A stretch of DNA of 64,000 nucleotides from Acidimicrobiia bacterium (GCA_009843865.1 VYCQ01000023.1:144092-208091), one strand, 5' to 3'; shown: positions 33,266 to 44,752, counted from the first letter of the stretch. Notes: a model not told the origin generated them from the sequence alone. Program-made: numbers and translations.

Positions 33266-33370
33266 AGAGCGCGGCTCTTTAAGGCCCCTGCGAAAAAGTT
33301 TTTACACTCCTTATATGTGTCTATGTCTATATGTGTCTATGTGTCACACGTCCTATATATATTGCTCCCC

Positions 33371-34510
33371 ATGGTGAGGTTTGTTCACACAGCCGATTGG
33401 CAGCTTGGCCAATGTCGCGACTACCTAGACGAAGATGCCCAGACGAGGCTTAATGAATCAAGAATTGAGGCCATATCGGCTATAGGGTCGTTGGCTGTTG
33501 AGGAGAGCTGCTCGTTCGTGGTGGTATGCGGTGATGTTTTCGAGCACAACCAAGTGAACCGGCGCGTGTTGAGTAGAGCACTGAGTGCCATGAAGGAGGC
33601 GCGAGATGTTGTGTTCTACCTGCTCCCCGGCAACCACGACCCGCTTAATGCGTCATCTATCTACTACTCACCAGATTTCCAAAGTCGACCTGACAACGTG
33701 TACTTGCTAGACAGCGCAGACCCTGTTGAGATTGAGCCAGGGGTTGAATTAATCGGAGCCCCATGGCCAAACAAAGAGCCGACTTCGGATCTAGTGACCG
33801 ATGCCTGTTCCTACCTGTCCGATGACGCGCTAGACAATGGGCGTGTGCGAATCGTTGTTGGCCACGGTGGGACGGATACCCTCGCTATGGGAAGAGTCGG
33901 ATCAAAAACGATCTCTACTACTTCGTTAGAGTCACTGATCGGACAAGGCCGTATCCATTATGTCGCTTTGGGGGATCGGCATTCCACAACTTCGGTAGGT
34001 AACACGGGCCGAATCTGGTATTCGGGGTCACCCGAGCCGACGGATTTTAGAGAGACAGACCCCGGCAATGTCCTTATTGTAGATGTTGATGAACAGATAG
34101 TGGAGGTAACACCTAAGCCAGTGGGGAGGTGGAGTTTTGTCGAAGAGGCGAGAGTTTTGACCTCAGGCGAGGATGTGGATTTACTCGGCGAGTGGCTAAC
34201 AGCGATTAGCGACAAAAAACGAGCCATCGTCCAACTTGATCTGAGCGGGCAGGTATCGGTGAAACAGAAAGCACGACTTGACGAAATCCTAGCTAGCTAC
34301 TGCGATGAGTTCGCTCACTTAACAGAGAAGTCTGACTGGACCAGCCTAGTGTTAATCCCAGACAACATGGACGAACAAGAGGTCGGCTTGTCTGGTTATG
34401 CCCTAGCCACATGGAATGAATTAAAAGCCGAAGCATTGTCATCTAACCCCGAAAAGGCGCGAATCGCCAAAGAGTCGTTAGCCATCATGTACCGAATAGC
34501 AAAACACTAG
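33371..34510 (+). CDS. Mre11/SbcD-like metallophosphoesterase nuclease
   Basis: HTADWQLG, CGDVF, PGNHD, VGHG, YVALGDRH, YSGSPE; TATATT 7 nt before ATG at 33371. Confidence 0.9.
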   Translation: MVRFVHTADWQLGQCRDYLDEDAQTRLNESRIEAISAIGSLAVEESCSFVVVCGDVFEHNQVNRRVLSRALSAMKEARDVVFYLLPGNHDPLNASSIYYSPDFQSRPDNVYLLDSADPVEIEPGVELIGAPWPNKEPTSDLVTDACSYLSDDALDNGRVRIVVGHGGTDTLAMGRVGSKTISTTSLESLIGQGRIHYVALGDRHSTTSVGNTGRIWYSGSPEPTDFRETDPGNVLIVDVDEQIVEVTPKPVGRWSFVEEARVLTSGEDVDLLGEWLTAISDKKRAIVQLDLSGQVSVKQKARLDEILASYCDEFAHLTEKSDWTSLVLIPDNMDEQEVGLSGYALATWNELKAEALSSNPEKARIAKESLAIMYRIAKH

Positions 34511-34512
34511 GC

Positions 34513-37140
34513 ATGAGACTCCACCGAATACATTTGACCAATTTTCGCGGAGTTCAAAACCGCTCCATTGAGTTCAACACCAACGGCATCACGATTGTCG
34601 AAGGCAACAACGAAGCAGGCAAATCCAGTATCTTCGACGCACTCCATATGGTTCTCTACGAGCGCGATTCGGCGAGGTCGCACAGGGTGAAAGATGCCCA
34701 ACCTGTCAACAGAGATGTTGGGCCTGAGGTCGCAGTCCACCTTTCTGTAGGCGAATATCAATTTGAGTACTGGAAGCGGTGGCTGAAGAACATTGGGACT
34801 ACACTGGAAATTTCGGCACCCGTTCCTGAGAACCATACTGGCAGAGCTGCTCACGAGCGGGTTGAGCAAATCCTTGCCGAGACCCTAGATGCGGACTTAT
34901 GGGACGCGTTGAGAATGCTTCAATCGGGCGATTTAAAGATGCCAGCGTTCACAGCAGAGTCATTCGGCAAAGCACTAGACATATCTACAGACAAGGTTGC
35001 GTTAGATGATTCGCTGAGCAGCTTGCGTGACAGGGTGGAAAAACATTACTTAGCCTTTTGGACCAAAACGGGCAGAGTGCCCAAGGAACGCGCCAGCAAG
35101 AAAACCGAGGCCAAAAGAGCAAGAGAGGCAAGAGATGACCTGCAATATCGAATGAACAGTGTGGATGCCGACCAAGCCAAGTTGGTGAAGCTGACAGACA
35201 CGCTCGGCCACTTGAATGATCAGGAGCGAGAACAGGCAGTCAAGCTAGAACACCTTACTGAGCAGTGGGACTCCACAGAGTCGCTTCGCCGCGATGTGGA
35301 CAGGTTTGCACTAGAGACCGGAAAAGCCAAAGCAGAATTGGAACATGCTAGAGCAGAGCAGCAAGACAGAAAACGTCTCATTGAAGAAGTTAAAACAGCC
35401 GAGAGCAGGGCCAAGAAAAGCCAAACAGATTTGTCCACAGCTAAAGAAAATCTCAAGGTGGCTGTTGAACAGGTGACAAAAGCAGAAGAAGCATTGACTT
35501 GCGCCATTAGTGTCCTTGAACACTTAACACAACACCTACAGACAGCAGAGCAAGACCGCGAGCACTATGCCCAACTCAAGCGATTAGGCGAACTGAGAGG
35601 CAACCATAACAGGGTCAAAGAGGCACAGCAGCAACAGGTTGAAGCCAAGAAAACGATTGATGTTTGCTTGAGCAGGAATGATGCTGACCGGATAGCGGAT
35701 GCCGAAGGTGCGAAGAACGCTGCCGAGGCAAGTTTCACTCAGTCTACAGCAAAGGTTATGGCCACGGCTCTGTGTACTATCGCCGTAGAGATCAATGGGG
35801 AAATGGTGTCCCTCGAACAGGGCGACATCAAAGAAAGACACGTCGTCGATGTCTGGGAACTCGTCCTCCCCGAGCAGCTGCGGGTCACCGTTCAGATAGG
35901 CGACGATTCCAAACACTTCGCCGACAAGTTTCAAGCAGCTCAAAAGCAGTACGAGACTCTCTGTTTAGAGGCTAGCGTAGCCGACACCATCGAAGCCCGT
36001 CAGCAGGCCACTGCCCGCGAAGAGGCAGAAAAATTATATCAGGAAGCAGAAAATGTCATCACAGCATGTCTTGACGGCACGATCATTGATGCGCTGGTCG
36101 CTGAGATCATCAAACAATCTGAAGTGACCGACTCTTATAAGAGCGCCAGGACCACAGACTGTCCCTTTCCTGCTGACGCTGAAGAAGCGGAAAGAGCTTT
36201 TGATGAAACAGTGCAACAACACGAAACTCAAAAAGCAGATATGGATGATTTGAAACAAGCGCTCAACGATGCCCAACGCGACTTCGCAACCGCCGAAACG
36301 AAGGTAGAACAAGCCAACAAGAGCCAAGTGGAAACCGAGAAAGGGTTGGTGATAGCCGAAACTGCTTTAGCCGACGCCCGTAAGGTCACAGATGACGATG
36401 CCGTCAAAAATAACCTAGATACCAAGTCTCAGCAGTTAAACGATTTGAGAGCATCAGAAGACAATGTCCGGTCACAATTAGAAAGCAAAAATGTCGAAGC
36501 CCTCAAGCAGTCGTTAGAAAACGCTCAAGACGATCACGAGCGAACTAAAGAAAATATCCAGGCCAATGAGCAGGAGCAGCGGAGACTAGAAGGGGCGCTT
36601 CAGCAAGCAGGCGCAGATGGAATCAGCACTTTATTGGATCAAGCCGAGAGCAAGCTGCAAGCCATTGAGCGGACGGTCCGAAGCGAAGACTTAAAAGCAG
36701 ATGCGGCAAAACTGCTCTATAAGACGTTTGAAAAGCACAGGCAGTCAGCCCACGAACGGTGCGTCGAGCCGTTTAAACAAGAGGTTGAGAAGCTCGGCCA
36801 CCTCGTATTCGGAAACGATTTCATGGTGACCTTGGACGAGAATATGAGAGTCGTGAGCCGTACCCTGAATCAAGAAACGTTGAGCTTAGATCAGCTCAGC
36901 ACAGGCACCCGCGAGCAGATCGGGGTATTGTGTCGACTGGCTTGCGCGTCTATCACAAGCATCGACGGTAAAGGTGCTCCCGTTGTCATCGACGATGCTC
37001 TCGGTTGGAGCGACTCGGATCGCTTGCAAACGATGGGCCAAGCCATCACTCAAGCAGGTAAAAGGTGTCAGGTCGTCATCCTCACTTGCATGGCTAGCAG
37101 GTACGGGAATGTAGGCGAGGCTAGAACAGTTCGACTCTGA
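34513..37140 (+). CDS. Rad50/SbcC-like coiled-coil ATPase
   Basis: NFRG, Walker A GNNEAGKS, long coiled coil, LSTGTREQ signature, Walker B VVIDDALG. Confidence 0.88.
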   Translation: MRLHRIHLTNFRGVQNRSIEFNTNGITIVEGNNEAGKSSIFDALHMVLYERDSARSHRVKDAQPVNRDVGPEVAVHLSVGEYQFEYWKRWLKNIGTTLEISAPVPENHTGRAAHERVEQILAETLDADLWDALRMLQSGDLKMPAFTAESFGKALDISTDKVALDDSLSSLRDRVEKHYLAFWTKTGRVPKERASKKTEAKRAREARDDLQYRMNSVDADQAKLVKLTDTLGHLNDQEREQAVKLEHLTEQWDSTESLRRDVDRFALETGKAKAELEHARAEQQDRKRLIEEVKTAESRAKKSQTDLSTAKENLKVAVEQVTKAEEALTCAISVLEHLTQHLQTAEQDREHYAQLKRLGELRGNHNRVKEAQQQQVEAKKTIDVCLSRNDADRIADAEGAKNAAEASFTQSTAKVMATALCTIAVEINGEMVSLEQGDIKERHVVDVWELVLPEQLRVTVQIGDDSKHFADKFQAAQKQYETLCLEASVADTIEARQQATAREEAEKLYQEAENVITACLDGTIIDALVAEIIKQSEVTDSYKSARTTDCPFPADAEEAERAFDETVQQHETQKADMDDLKQALNDAQRDFATAETKVEQANKSQVETEKGLVIAETALADARKVTDDDAVKNNLDTKSQQLNDLRASEDNVRSQLESKNVEALKQSLENAQDDHERTKENIQANEQEQRRLEGALQQAGADGISTLLDQAESKLQAIERTVRSEDLKADAAKLLYKTFEKHRQSAHERCVEPFKQEVEKLGHLVFGNDFMVTLDENMRVVSRTLNQETLSLDQLSTGTREQIGVLCRLACASITSIDGKGAPVVIDDALGWSDSDRLQTMGQAITQAGKRCQVVILTCMASRYGNVGEARTVRL

Positions 37141-39349: not shown

Positions 39350-40234
39350 ATGAAGTTAACCAACAGCGTCGTTATCAGGTCTTTGGCACTGCTATTTGCC
39401 GTAGCTTTAGTTTGTATGGCTTGCAGCTCAGATAGCTCAACCGCGTCTCACACAGGGACACCTGTAACTAGCACGCCCAATCAAGCTCCAAGCGATATTA
39501 GCAGCGATCCAGCAACAACTTCACCCACCTCTGAAACCATGCAAGCTCAGACCCCTGTTCCTACTACTAGGGTTGAGCAGCCAGTACCTTTCGATCAGAG
39601 TCAAACCCCAGAGCCAGTTTCTGATTCTGCTGAAACACCAACACCGCAATCCGGGCAAAACTCTGCGCAGAACCCCTCAGCAACTCAAGCCCCAGAACCG
39701 CAAACAGAACCCCAGACCACCCCACCAACCGAGCAACAAGCTACGCCTCAACCCACCCCTACCAGGCCATTAGCTACACCATCGTCAAGCGCAACTCCCA
39801 CATCAAAACCAACACCAATCCCCGAATCGGATCTGCCATCCATCAACGTTATCAACGTTACCAGCGGCGCAACTGTAAACCTCGCAAGCTTTGCGCCAGG
39901 CCAAAAGCCCATTGTGTTGTGGTTTTGGGCACCCCATTGATCTACTTGCCGCCGGGAAGCATCCGGCCTCGAGCAGTTGGCTCGACAGAACAGCGACAAG
40001 TTCACCCTCATCGGCTTGGGGGCACAAGACAGCCTCTCGCACGCTGAGAGTTTCGTAAGCTCCACTGGTACTACCTTTACCATGCTTTGGGACTCATCAG
40101 GAGCCTCCTGGCGAGAGCTAAGTGTTTTTGGTCAACCCAGTTTGATCGTCATGGATCGCTATGGTCGCGAAACCGACCGCCGTGGTGGTGTTTCACCAAG
40201 TTGGATTCTGCACGCGATTGAAAACATTAATTAA
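39350..40234 (+). CDS. Putative selenoprotein: lipoprotein TlpA/DsbE-like thioredoxin with UxxC active site (UGA at 39938-39940)
   Basis: ORFs 39350-39940 and 39977-40234 share one frame; read-through gives WFWAPH-U-STCRREA...GQP, a complete thioredoxin fold; signal peptide with MAC lipobox and P/T/Q-rich linker. Confidence 0.8.
39951..39967 (+). promoter_or_regulatory. Candidate bacterial SECIS hairpin
   Basis: GCCGG-GAAGCAT-CCGGC starts 10 nt after the in-frame UGA. Confidence 0.6.
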
Positions 40235-41676: not shown

Positions 41677-42198
41677 CTAGCTGCCAGTTTGACTAGCCGG
41701 TTGCTGGTTTATCCGAAACGAGTCATTAGAAGCGACACCTTTGATGTTACTCCGATCGCCAGCAGCTTCAACAGGCAACTTCTGAACCGCAGCATCTACC
41801 TGCTGCACCAGATCATCCATGGGTAAGTACAGAGCTCCTTGACCTTGGCGCAACGCGTCTAAGAGCTGCTCATCAGTGCGTACTAGCAACGACTTCTTGC
41901 CTTTGATCACCAAATCGGCACTGACCAAATCCTCGCCTAGTTCATGGCGCACATAGTCAAACACCTCACGCACTCGCTGCAACCCAATGCCTTCATCCAT
42001 CAATCTTTTAATAAGCTTCAACTCCAGCAAATCCCGGTAAGAGTAGCGGCGCCGACTACCACTACCGATTGCTTTTTGGGCAGTAGAGGTGACCAAACCC
42101 GTGCGGGTCCAATAGTCCAACTGCCGGTAAGTAATACCCACAATTGCAATGGTCTGAACCGAGCTGAAGTCACTGGCTACCTGTTTGTAGACGGTCAT
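41677..42198 (-). CDS. MerR-family regulator (Rv1830-like)
   Basis: GITYRQLDYWTRTGLV, GSGSRRRYSYRDL, LDALRQGQG; GGGAGG RBS. Confidence 0.9.
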   Translation of the reverse strand: MTVYKQVASDFSSVQTIAIVGITYRQLDYWTRTGLVTSTAQKAIGSGSRRRYSYRDLLELKLIKRLMDEGIGLQRVREVFDYVRHELGEDLVSADLVIKGKKSLLVRTDEQLLDALRQGQGALYLPMDDLVQQVDAAVQKLPVEAAGDRSNIKGVASNDSFRINQQPASQTGS

Positions 42199-42298
42199 TT
42201 GATCCTCCCAGGTATAGATGAGAACAGGTATCAGCGAAGAACGAACGAGCCCTTCGCATTTTGATTACATCAAAGAAACTACGCCCTTGATGTTCTTC

Positions 42299-42327
42299 AG
42301 GCTAGAACTCTGCCTGTGAATTGTCAA
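42299..42327 (-). promoter_or_regulatory. SigA-type promoter TTGACA-17nt-TAGCCT for the merR-nuclease-gcvT unit
   Basis: -35 at 42327-42322 and -10 at 42304-42299 on the minus strand. Confidence 0.65.
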
Positions 42328-42346
42328 GGGTTGTGAACTGGCTGAT

Positions 42347-42844
42347 TCAGCCGTTGAAATCCTCAGGGTTAACTTGATCTAGGAACTCTCTAAACTGATC
42401 TAGCACCTCTTCGGGAGGTTCATCTTCAGAATCTAATGGCATATCCGCCACATGACCTGCTGCCGCTAGAACCTCTTCAGAGGCAAAAATTGGTGCCCCA
42501 GATCGCACCGCTAAAGCAAATGCATCAGAAGGACGACTCGAGATGCGCCGCTGTCCATTAGCATCTGCGAATTCCAGCTCGGCAAAAAAAGTACGTTCCC
42601 GCAACTCGGTCACGATAATGCGTTCCAAACGCACACCTAGGTCATCCAACACGTTCTTAAACAAGTCGTGGGTCATTGGGCGTGGTGTTTCTACCTCTTC
42701 TAATGCCAGAGCAATTGCCTGAGCTTCGGTACCACCAATGAAAATGGGTAACAGGCGGGCTCCCCCGTTAACTTCGCGGAGCAAAACAATGGGCGCGTTG
42801 GTTGGTAACTCAACACGCACTCCGATGAGTTCCATCTCAATCAT
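42347..42844 (-). CDS. Bifunctional nuclease family protein (BFN/DUF151, Rv1829-like)
   Basis: LPIFIGGTEA, PRPMTHDL, SSRPSDAFALA, FREFLDQVNPEDF; ATG at 42844. Confidence 0.92.
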   Translation of the reverse strand: MIEMELIGVRVELPTNAPIVLLREVNGGARLLPIFIGGTEAQAIALALEEVETPRPMTHDLFKNVLDDLGVRLERIIVTELRERTFFAELEFADANGQRRISSRPSDAFALAVRSGAPIFASEEVLAAAGHVADMPLDSEDEPPEEVLDQFREFLDQVNPEDFNG

Positions 42845-42854
42845 CGTTGCCAGG

Positions 42855-43412
42855 CTAGTAGAGGACAGACACAAAGGCATCCGGGTCAGCAGCCAAGCTT
42901 GCCGGATGGCAGATGAACAGATCTTGAAGATTGCGGTAGCGGCCCAACCAGTCCAATCCATAGCCCAAGAAAAACTCGTCTGGCACCTCAAAGGCTACGT
43001 AGTCAGGCACCAAGGGCAATATCCGGCGAGCCTTGCGATCTAACAAGGTGGCTACCGACACCGAAGCTGCCGAACGACGTTGCAACTCCTCCACCAGGTA
43101 GTTGAGGCTTAAGCCGGTGTCAACGATGCCCTCGACCAGCACAATCTCGCGACCGGTCACGTCCTGATTCAAATCTTTCAAAAGCCGCACGCGCCCCGAG
43201 TCTGGTGCAAATCGGTTCAGAGCTAAAAAATCAATCTCTACTTCAATATCGAGTGCTTTTGCTAGATCAGCCAAAAACAATAGGCTGCCCTTGAGCACCG
43301 AAACCAGCACTGTGCCGTTTGAGCGCTCCGCTGAAATTTGCTGCGCTACTCGTACAACGGCAGCGGCGATTTCGTTCTTGCTGGCAAACAGCTTCAATGG
43401 TGCGACCTGCAC
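42855..43412 (-). CDS. HPRT-like phosphoribosyltransferase with degenerate active-site motifs
   Basis: VLKGS..FLADL and GYGLD..YRNL are HPRT-like, but VEGIVDTG replaces VEDIVDTG and NRF replaces the SY loop. Confidence 0.8.
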   Translation of the reverse strand: MQVAPLKLFASKNEIAAAVVRVAQQISAERSNGTVLVSVLKGSLLFLADLAKALDIEVEIDFLALNRFAPDSGRVRLLKDLNQDVTGREIVLVEGIVDTGLSLNYLVEELQRRSAASVSVATLLDRKARRILPLVPDYVAFEVPDEFFLGYGLDWLGRYRNLQDLFICHPASLAADPDAFVSVLY

Positions 43413-43418
43413 GAGAAA

Positions 43419-44252
43419 TTAAGGATTTTGAGTATGGTTGGCTAAAGCCATCCGCAAAAGTGATAAGCGCAACTCCGAGCCAAGGTCAATCAACTCCTCT
43501 AACATGTCCTGACACTTATGTCGGGCCGACTGAGTGTGCAGCATGGCTAGCGGCCTGATTCGCCGCTCTAACAAATCAGCCTCATGTTCTACTGCGGTCT
43601 TGTAAATACGCAGATGACGAGGTTCTACTCCATGCTGATTCAAAAAGGCCGCTACGGTCTTAGCCACGATCACCGCCTCGGGGCTGTAATGCAAGTTGTG
43701 CCCATTGTCGATCTTCTCAATAAGGCCGAACTGCTCAAGCTCAGAAATCCGACCCACCAGCAACCCGCTAGCCGCAACCAACTCATCGACAGTTAGCGGC
43801 CCTATAGTTCCCCCTATAGCTCCTTTTGCAGTCCTTTTTGAAGTCTCTTGTGGACTTAGGTTTCTAGCATTACTTGAGGGTTTAGAGCGAGATGCACGCT
43901 CAGAAGTCTTCAAGGTATTGCGTGTCGGCTTGCGTCGAGTGCTCGCTTTTGGCACATCGCGGCTGAGCTGTGGTTCAGCAAACTGTTCCTCAGCCAAGCT
44001 TGCACCAAAATCTTTGGTGTCGATTAACTCTTTGATTACCTTGAGGGGCAGGAAATGGTCACGCTGTTGCTCCAAAATCCAACGTAAGCGATTCACATCT
44101 GCTTCTGTGAATTTGCGATAGCCAGATTTGGTGCGGTCTGGGTCTATCAAACCTTGGCTCTCCAAAAACCGGATTTTGGAGATGCTGATGTCTTTGAACT
44201 CATCCTTCAACAAATCCAAAACCTGCCCAATGGAACGATGTGGGCTGCTCAC
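43419..44252 (-). CDS. MerR-family regulator (FtsR/Rv1828-like)
   Basis: SIGQVL..L..EF.DISISKIRFLESQGLI, RTKSGYRKF, QRDHFLPLKVI, GVEPRHLR. Confidence 0.9.
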   Translation of the reverse strand: MSSPHRSIGQVLDLLKDEFKDISISKIRFLESQGLIDPDRTKSGYRKFTEADVNRLRWILEQQRDHFLPLKVIKELIDTKDFGASLAEEQFAEPQLSRDVPKASTRRKPTRNTLKTSERASRSKPSSNARNLSPQETSKRTAKGAIGGTIGPLTVDELVAASGLLVGRISELEQFGLIEKIDNGHNLHYSPEAVIVAKTVAAFLNQHGVEPRHLRIYKTAVEHEADLLERRIRPLAMLHTQSARHKCQDMLEELIDLGSELRLSLLRMALANHTQNP

Positions 44253-44752
44253 TGGCCCGTTCCATCTTGGTAGAACAACTTAAAACGACCCACCTGCAAC
44301 TCATCACCGTTTTTAAGGCCAACATCTTCCACCCGACGACTGTTGAGGTAAGTACCGTTTAGCGAACCCATATCTTTCACTCTGCGTACCAACCCATCTC
44401 TATAAATCTCTGCATGGCGGCGTGAAACGGTGATGTCATCCAAGAAAATTCGGGAGTCGCCATGTCGTCCAATGGTCACCAAATCTTCCGATAGTTCAAA
44501 GCGGCTCCCCGCAGCTAGTCCTTCAGTAATCACCAACACCGCAGGGTGGCGAAATAACTCAGCGTCAAGCTTAAGCTCAGTAGTGGGTTCACCCGCTGAC
44601 GTGCCTGCTTGTAAGTCACAGTTGGTCTTCACTAAACGGACACCACAGGCGGCGCAGAAGTTGGCACCATGCTCGTTAATGTGGCCGCGCAACTTGCAAG
44701 GCACCTGCTCATCATCTGCTGGTGTTGCATCTGGACGGGGGTCGGAGATCAC
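44249..44752 (-). CDS. FHA domain protein with N-terminal zinc-ribbon-like segment (GarA/OdhI-like)
   Basis: C..GH.N...ANFC..CG, EPTT, IGRH...IFLDDITVSRRHA, GSLNGTY; position downstream of gcvH. Confidence 0.88.
   Translation of the reverse strand: MISDPRPDATPADDEQVPCKLRGHINEHGANFCAACGVRLVKTNCDLQAGTSAGEPTTELKLDAELFRHPAVLVITEGLAAGSRFELSEDLVTIGRHGDSRIFLDDITVSRRHAEIYRDGLVRRVKDMGSLNGTYLNSRRVEDVGLKNGDELQVGRFKLFYQDGTGQ

Follow-up and report, generated by a model that had tools for sequence, protein, structure and literature searches.

The closest relatives of solved structure of the protein considered here are two thioredoxin-fold proteins of Mycobacterium tuberculosis, DsbF (3ios) and DsbE/MPT53 (1lu4), which are exported actinobacterial proteins sharing an LWFWxP-x-C-xx-C-x-x-EAP block and a QP cis-Pro loop. 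The TlpA, ResA and CcmG(DsbE) reductases (cd02966-type) and Etrx from Streptococcus pneumoniae possess the same fold (TM-score 0.79-0.85) in a membrane-anchored or lipoprotein architecture. Members of the fold that carry selenocysteine (Sec, U) in a UxxC motif are, in the parts of the survey literature covered here, the dominant class of selenoproteins in marine metagenomes, and UxxC peroxiredoxin (Prx)-like, redoxin and TlpA-like selenoproteins have been catalogued since 2004-2008. The table of a 2026 review includes a Prx-like thiol:disulfide oxidoreductase (PF00578), a redoxin family protein (PF08534), a UGC-containing TlpA family and a HUIPC-motif thioredoxin-like selenoprotein (PMC13188914), and UxxC thioredoxin-fold families are also tabulated in the Sargasso Sea and Global Ocean Sampling (GOS) papers. 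The subject of this study is a locus at positions 39350-40234 (plus strand) of a 64,000-nucleotide stretch of DNA from an Acidimicrobiia bacterium (GCA_009843865.1, VYCQ01000023.1:144092-208091), referred to throughout as the window. From its sequence, the locus is very probably one gene encoding an exported thioredoxin-like lipoprotein in which a UGA-encoded Sec is the attacking residue.

The predicted protein resembles DsbF and DsbE in the conserved block, the cis-Pro loop and its predicted export, but has Sec in place of the first Cys, His rather than Trp before it, a putative lipobox, a linker of ~135 residues and a requirement for a selenocysteine insertion sequence (SECIS). It resembles TlpA, ResA, CcmG and Etrx in its predicted anchoring and in that a CcdA-type partner is encoded in the same genome; unlike the genes for TlpA, ResA and CcmG, however, the gene does not lie beside ccdA or cytochrome c maturation genes.

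A single reading frame and its thioredoxin-fold domain

Two open reading frames (ORFs) are called at the locus, both in the same frame and separated by a lone TGA. Reading the TGA as U yields 294 residues with U197 in the context PIVLWFWAPH-U-STC-RREA, which upholds the proposal of a sequence-only reading of the DNA that the two calls are one split gene. Pfam matches bridging the TGA (amino acids 162-283) were obtained with AhpC-TSA (PF00578; 44 bits, cut-off 26), and Redoxin (PF08534; 43.1 bits, cut-off 26.6) and Thioredoxin_8 (30.8 bits, cut-off 27) also bridge it. In a phmmer search of the PDB the domain matched DsbF (8.8e-15) and MPT53 (3.7e-14), and U197 aligns with the first Cys of LWFWAPWCPTC in DsbF and of LWFWTPWCPFC in MPT53, so that the TGA falls on the nucleophilic Cys of the mycobacterial motif, as that reading had claimed. 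The GQP motif that it had recognised downstream of the TGA lies at 40130-40138, in line with the QP of DsbF and MPT53; its Gln is near-invariant in the protein alignment and its Pro is swapped in some paralogues.

An AlphaFold2 model of the domain has a predicted local distance difference test score (pLDDT) of 97.3 and a predicted TM-score (pTM) of 0.91, and places Sec (domain residue U37) directly ahead of the helix formed by residues 38-53. The top Foldseek matches of the model are 3ios (DsbF; TM-score 0.83) and 1lu4 (DsbE/MPT53; TM-score 0.78), at 28-30% identity, after which come ResA, CcmG, Etrx2 (a pneumococcal lipoprotein) and TlpA (TM-score 0.77-0.85). Scores against the NCBIfam models fall far below the curated cut-offs for DsbE (TIGR00385; 34.8 against 123.15 bits), ResA (NF002854; 21.9 against 170 bits) and TlpA (NF047696; 19.4 against 230 bits). 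The domain is a member of the TlpA/ResA/DsbE superfamily that lies outside those named subfamilies.

Conservation of the UGA across homologues

A six-frame search was performed on 60 relatives, 36 of which belong to the same genus. The gene was matched in all 36 same-genus genomes, and every match spanning query residue 37 contains one TGA; the three matches lacking it (one in G014, two in G017) are contig-end fragments that begin past this residue. Across 30 loci, comprising 29 same-genus genomes and the window's own, TGA occupies the active-site column in 55/55 copies, within the motif W[AF]WAPH-U-xxC. A further set of 80 named-species loci, many from the same genomes as the six-frame search, gave 110 mapped hits and one weak hit that was left unmapped; at the active-site column 90 of the mapped hits have TGA, 18 TGC and two TGT, with conservation on both sides. 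Such recurrence of TGA at a single column greatly exceeds what chance would give. This is the alternation between Sec and Cys codons that the sequence-only reading had named as a check on Sec. The named relatives are metagenome-assembled genomes (MAGs) labelled Candidatus Poriferisocius, Acidimicrobiales or Sva0996 marine group, and further homologues are present in Ilumatobacteraceae, Aldehydirespiratoraceae, Sporichthyaceae and Microthrixaceae. In the protein database, the full-length Cys homologues bear the name TlpA family protein disulfide reductase, or else thiol-disulfide isomerase/thioredoxin. Cys forms carry WFWAPH-C-PFC and similar motifs in which the His ahead of the nucleophile is kept, and this His is therefore a feature of the clade and not an adaptation to Sec, contrary to its earlier description as unusual.

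The 36-sequence protein alignment contains 17 invariant columns, 11 of which lie downstream of the Sec column. Substitutions per site relative to the window at codon positions 1, 2 and 3 are 0.33, 0.18 and 0.59 upstream and 0.41, 0.27 and 0.62 downstream of the SECIS region, counted in 64 of 71 sequences, the other seven having been left out on account of an insertion that shifts the ungapped alignment. The invariant columns and the substitution pattern demonstrate that coding constraint persists downstream of the UGA. The gene order is also retained: gcvT lies downstream in convergent orientation across the genus, and aroC-trpC lies upstream in the nearest relatives.

A quick maximum-likelihood tree was built from 64 domain sequences (44 Sec and 20 Cys). 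For this tree the trait column was masked, and the set excluded the duplicate loci L050-L082 together with the majority of the same-genus rows. Every Sec form falls within one 46-row group (Shimodaira-Hasegawa-like approximate likelihood ratio test, SH-aLRT, 84), inside which two Cys forms, L096 and L129, are also placed, and the tree requires at least three changes of state at the Sec/Cys column. This topology is consistent with one gain of Sec followed by two reversions to Cys, although the tree is no proof of that history. The two nested Cys forms (L096:1501-1902 and L129:1498-1899) are long-branched and are apparently natural Sec-to-Cys reversions.

Sec decoding in the genome

The genome to which the window belongs has been assembled into 43 contigs totalling 1.79 Mb, at 98% completeness. 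It contains a tRNA-Sec (Rfam score 68.9 bits against a gathering score of 47), which ARAGORN calls SeC(tca); selA (398 bits) directly followed by selB (296 bits, in a 584-amino-acid frame); and selD (339.5 bits), with all three genes scoring above the curated cut-offs. The genome thus holds the complete Sec-decoding apparatus, the presence of which the sequence-only reading had named as a check. Its selD is itself a selenoprotein gene, with an in-frame TGA in the context AHGAG-U-AGKLGP (contig C41:10676-11677) and a hairpin, CUCGG-GCCGU-CCGAG, at +13 to +27 after that TGA. TGA is also the commonest ordinary stop codon in the genome, closing 356 of the 816 stop-to-stop open frames that are 300 codons or longer, and the genetic code is therefore not reassigned. 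Further genomes, of unknown completeness, yielded selA in four of five with TGA forms and two of five with Cys forms. A naive scan of the window's genome for UxxC or CxxU across in-frame TGAs returned 160 candidates, which were mostly out of frame and uninformative.

RNA elements downstream of the UGA

The RNA around the codon was compared from -3 nt to +57 nt in 73 distinct Sec forms and 19 distinct Cys forms. The window's sequence contains two successive hairpins. The first, the GCCGG/CCGGC hairpin that the sequence-only reading took as the SECIS directly 3' of the Sec codon, is real; it was located at 39951-39967, beginning 10 nt past the A of the TGA, and folds alone at -9.1 kcal/mol. The Sec-specific core, however, is more likely to be the second hairpin at 39969-39985, which is the sole helix retained by RNAalifold.

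Hairpin 2 is present as an exact 17-mer in 61/73 Sec forms and in 0/19 Cys forms, and its loop is AGUUN in 73/73 Sec forms. Column entropy is ~0 throughout the hairpin, the last loop base excepted; the flanks in Sec forms, and the hairpin 2 positions in Cys forms, vary by 0.7-1.7 bits. The minimum free energy (MFE) of the region is -7.5 kcal/mol or lower in 66/73 Sec forms and in none of the 19 Cys forms. Pairing is kept in 98.6% of cells, and the stem shows a single double change, from C-G to U-A, together with five wobble changes. The Ala codon in the stem is GCT in 70/72 cases compared with 72/807 Ala codons elsewhere in the domain, and the stem Arg codon is CGA in 67/71 cases compared with 60/454 Arg codons elsewhere, and the fixation of these rare codons indicates selection on the RNA rather than on the protein. 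Both Cys forms nested among the Sec forms, L096 and L129, have lost hairpin 2, and L096 has kept hairpin 1.

The bacterial SECIS (bSECIS) constraints, as listed in the 2026 review, are a loop of 3-9 nt, a stem of 4-16 bp, a G in the first two loop positions, a spacing of 16-37 nt and an MFE of -7.5 kcal/mol or lower (PMC13188914). Hairpin 2 lies within all of these, with a loop of 5 nt in which G at position 2 is followed by U, a stem of 6 bp, 34 nt from the UGA to the loop and an MFE of -8.6 kcal/mol; hairpin 1 does not have the loop G of the published model. A search of positions 39850-40100 against all Rfam families at E-values up to 10 found no SECIS family and returned a lone chance match to DapZ (E 5.4). 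The hairpin 2 core sequence has no second occurrence in the window's genome outside this gene, and is therefore not a shared SECIS motif. Hairpin 2 is probably the SECIS core, and hairpin 1 would then be a folded spacer or helper.

Export and proposed action

The window's protein has a hydrophobic N-terminus and a putative lipobox Cys at residue 25. The N-termini of the orthologues are likewise hydrophobic and close in ..AAC[G/S], a canonical lipobox, or in ..VTAC at the position aligned with that of the window's protein, and their linkers are Pro/Thr/Ala-rich, similar in composition and variable in length. These features agree with the earlier proposal of a membrane-anchored Sec oxidoreductase on a Pro/Thr/Gln stalk, with export being predicted.

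In the proposed mechanism, a stem-loop within the coding part of the mRNA, most likely hairpin 2, would recruit SelB with Sec-tRNA(Sec), and the product would be exported via the Sec secretion pathway and lipidated at Cys25. The ~135-residue Pro/Thr/Gln linker would hold the domain off the membrane, where it could undergo selenenylsulfide/disulfide exchange with envelope proteins. The one CcdA-like protein of the genome, a 378-amino-acid CcdA/DsbD_TM membrane protein on contig C9, is a CcdA-type electron carrier that would probably keep the Sec protein reduced; if so, the role of the Sec protein would be that of a reductase or isomerase, which is somewhat likelier than that of an oxidant.

The gene directly upstream of the CcdA-like protein encodes a canonical WCxxC TlpA-like lipoprotein of 172 amino acids, and the two (contig C9:14195-15918; L130 943-2667, minus strand) form the genome's conventional envelope reducing pair. 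A model after Etrx, in which a surface thioredoxin feeds an exported methionine sulfoxide reductase (Msr), was considered and dropped. The genome contains one MsrA and one MsrB, the latter in a 144-amino-acid frame, and no exported Msr was found in it, the MsrB frame itself being unread. An Etrx-like role in Msr repair is unsupported because the MsrA ORF has no hydrophobic leader at its start and neither Msr is fused or adjacent to the Sec gene. The features of the locus are listed in Table 1.

Table 1. Features of the selenoprotein gene and its transcript, in window coordinates.
Feature	Position	Strand	Description
Whole gene	39350..40234	+	294 codons and TAA stop; lone in-frame TGA read as Sec (U197)
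Upstream ORF call	39350..39940	+	196 amino acids; ATG start
Downstream ORF call	39977..40234	+	85 amino acids; TTG start
Predicted signal peptide, M1-A24, to putative lipobox Cys25 (..LVCMA-C-SSDSS)	39350..39424	+	From sequence and orthologue N-termini
Low-complexity Pro/Thr/Gln/Ser/Ala linker ('stalk'), residues 26-160	39425..39829	+	From composition; weak Pfam Pro-rich match
TlpA/ResA/DsbE-like thioredoxin-fold domain	39830..40231	+	Residues 161-294
Sec codon TGA, U197	39938..39940	+	Where CxxC has its N-terminal nucleophilic Cys; immediately precedes helix 1
Resolving Cys200 of U-S-T-C	39947..39949	+	Column C40, invariant in the 36-sequence protein alignment
Hairpin 1	39951..39967	+	6-bp stem GCCGGG/UCCGGC, loop AAGCA; possible SECIS spacer or auxiliary part
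Hairpin 2, proposed SECIS core	39969..39985	+	Stem UCGAGC/GCUCGA, loop AGUUG; +32..+48 from the U of UGA
Pro263, thioredoxin-fold cis-Pro (GQP)	40136..40138	+	Aligns with the QP of DsbF and MPT53

Alternative explanations

Gene callers end the upstream ORF at the TGA, and among predicted proteins of 161-515 amino acids there is no full-length orthologue, the best matches being Cys forms at 41-50% identity. Both observations would suit a true stop, with the locus a pseudogene, a nonsense mutation or an assembly error and the two ORFs either debris or separate genes. This is extremely improbable given that TGA recurs at the identical column in every one of the 55 copies from the genus and 90 times among the hits of the named loci, that coding constraint continues downstream, and that the downstream piece alone would have neither the active site nor strand 1/helix 1 of the fold. 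An assembly error is also opposed by Logan contigs from four sponge-metagenome runs, which match the 885 bases with no differences and show no variant at the TGA codon, although this agreement is not independent because the runs come from a single study, possibly the one behind the assembly; no RNA run was among the sequencing runs matched by the gene. Conservation on both sides of the codon is in principle equally compatible with a UGA that is read through as something other than Sec, by near-cognate insertion of Trp or Cys or under a reassigned code, and nothing specific favours such decoding. It is very improbable: TGA remains an ordinary stop in this genome, the column is a catalytic Cys in the homologues, which is the classic Sec/Cys pairing, the genome carries the full Sec machinery, and a Sec-form-specific stem-loop follows the codon. 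Some observations nevertheless weigh against a lipid-anchored selenoprotein decoded through hairpin 2. One of the five further genomes with TGA forms, a MAG whose completeness is unknown, yielded no selA; the lipobox in the window's protein, C-M-A-C, is an atypical one; and no functional partner lies beside the gene, the neighbours being aroC, trpC and gcvT. The two-hairpin fold of the window's sequence is no better than that of shuffled sequences (z -0.62; 53/200 equal or better). Covariation support for hairpin 2 is thin, at one double change, because the hairpin is almost invariant, and its conservation may partly reflect shared ancestry because the Sec forms are one clade. The candidate SECIS of selD in the same genome, moreover, lies nearer its UGA, where hairpin 1 sits here.

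The position of the selD hairpin keeps alive the alternative that hairpin 1, which also starts close to the UGA, is the functional SECIS and that hairpin 2 has been kept for another cause, such as the protein motif (V/L)EQ(F/L)AR. Hairpin 1 is stronger in Sec than in Cys forms (mean MFE -10.6 against -4.8 kcal/mol), reaches -7.5 kcal/mol or lower in 65/73 Sec forms, and shows compensatory changes on both sides at four pairs. This assignment is nevertheless improbable, since hairpin 1 is nearly absent (-2.0 kcal/mol) in 4/73 Sec forms, reaches -7.5 kcal/mol or lower in 3/19 Cys forms, including the nested L096, and is discarded by RNAalifold; its sequence is largely dictated by the C-R-x-E-A-P residues that Cys forms also possess, and selection on the protein offers no explanation for the rare codons fixed at the synonymous sites of hairpin 2. 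A separate question is whether the same protein could be an envelope oxidant that forms disulfides in exported proteins in the manner of M. tuberculosis DsbE and DsbF. These two proteins are the closest solved relatives in sequence and fold and are described as oxidants, which weighs against the reductase or isomerase role, and the Sec gene is not beside ccdA, whereas the canonical WCxxC paralogue is. On the other side, selenenylsulfides are generally more stable than disulfides, and a UxxC protein is therefore expected to be the poorer oxidant; almost all of the remaining structural neighbours (ResA, CcmG, TlpA and Etrx2) are reductants by title or by what is known of them, and a CcdA-type carrier is encoded in the genome. 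An oxidant is accordingly rated as rather unlikely, and reduction or isomerisation as the preferred role.

Relation to catalogued selenoproteins

The protein is a selenoprotein of the already known UxxC thioredoxin-fold kind. Like the catalogued UxxC Prx-like, redoxin and thiol-disulfide-isomerase-like selenoproteins, with which it was compared by domain and motif only, it has Sec first in UxxC and matches both PF00578 and PF08534. The tabulated HUIPC selenoprotein (NF047660) likewise has His directly ahead of Sec in UxxC; membership of that family was considered and rejected, there being no hit at E-values up to 0.01 for the protein and no match genome-wide. A preprint on Actinomarina, from another order of Acidimicrobiia, reports Sec machinery and ~5 selenoproteins per genome, and a term search of the preprint text found neither 'thioredoxin' nor 'TlpA'. 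No description of an Acidimicrobiales WAPH-U-xxC lipoprotein clade was found in the literature searched, and the clade may already have been catalogued.

Sec biology as known is left unchanged by this locus. Its value lies in correcting an ORF call that splits a conserved gene in a whole sponge-associated genus of Acidimicrobiales and in related families, and in adding a DsbE/DsbF-like enzyme, predicted to be exported and lipid-anchored, to the short list of actinobacterial selenoproteins. The collected sequences, with 73 distinct Sec and 19 Cys forms and with two nested Cys forms that have lost the element, also constitute a clean natural data set for bacterial SECIS models, with the secondary result that the Sec-specific RNA element appears to be the second hairpin and not the first. 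A broader joint interpretation may be put forward tentatively, and is on the whole unlikely to hold in full: that the SECIS is a two-hairpin structure in which a co-evolving hairpin 1 restores the spacing, and that it serves an uncatalogued, lineage-wide surface-tethered selenoenzyme of Actinomycetota, tandem-duplicated in sponge symbionts with one copy lacking the cis-Pro. If a two-hairpin SECIS were true, the SelB-binding AGUUN stem-loop would lie 28 nt past the UGA, at the outer limit of known bSECIS spacing, and folding of the intervening hairpin would reduce the effective spacing to ~11 nt.

Paralogues, genome features and neighbouring genes

Most of the larger congeners (2.2-4.1 Mb) possess two tandem Sec paralogues ~600 bp apart (L023, L025-L042 and similar loci), and the window's genome and its two closest relatives have a single copy in which QP is retained. 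In the congeners, the copy nearest the gene of the window carries QH or QL where the cis-Pro would be, and NS occupies the cis-Pro site in L087, L096 and L101. Judging from the sequences, the replacement of the cis-Pro in a paralogue suggests altered redox or substrate behaviour.

The window's genome, at 1.79 Mb and 53.7% GC against 2.2-4.1 Mb in its congeners, looks like a reduced-genome lineage within its genus, and the congeners' homologues of the gene are far more GC-rich at synonymous sites than the window's. The gene copy in L110, titled as an uncultured Planctomycetota, sits at zero branch length within the Ilumatobacteraceae group, and the bin label or contig assignment is probably wrong.

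Two gene groups near the locus are unrelated to the Sec gene. Positions 33317-37140 of the window (plus strand) encode a metallophosphoesterase and an 875-amino-acid AAA/SMC-type ATPase, a SbcD/SbcC-like pair, and positions 41677-44752 (minus strand) encode a cluster of MerR, bifunctional nuclease domain, MerR and FHA proteins.

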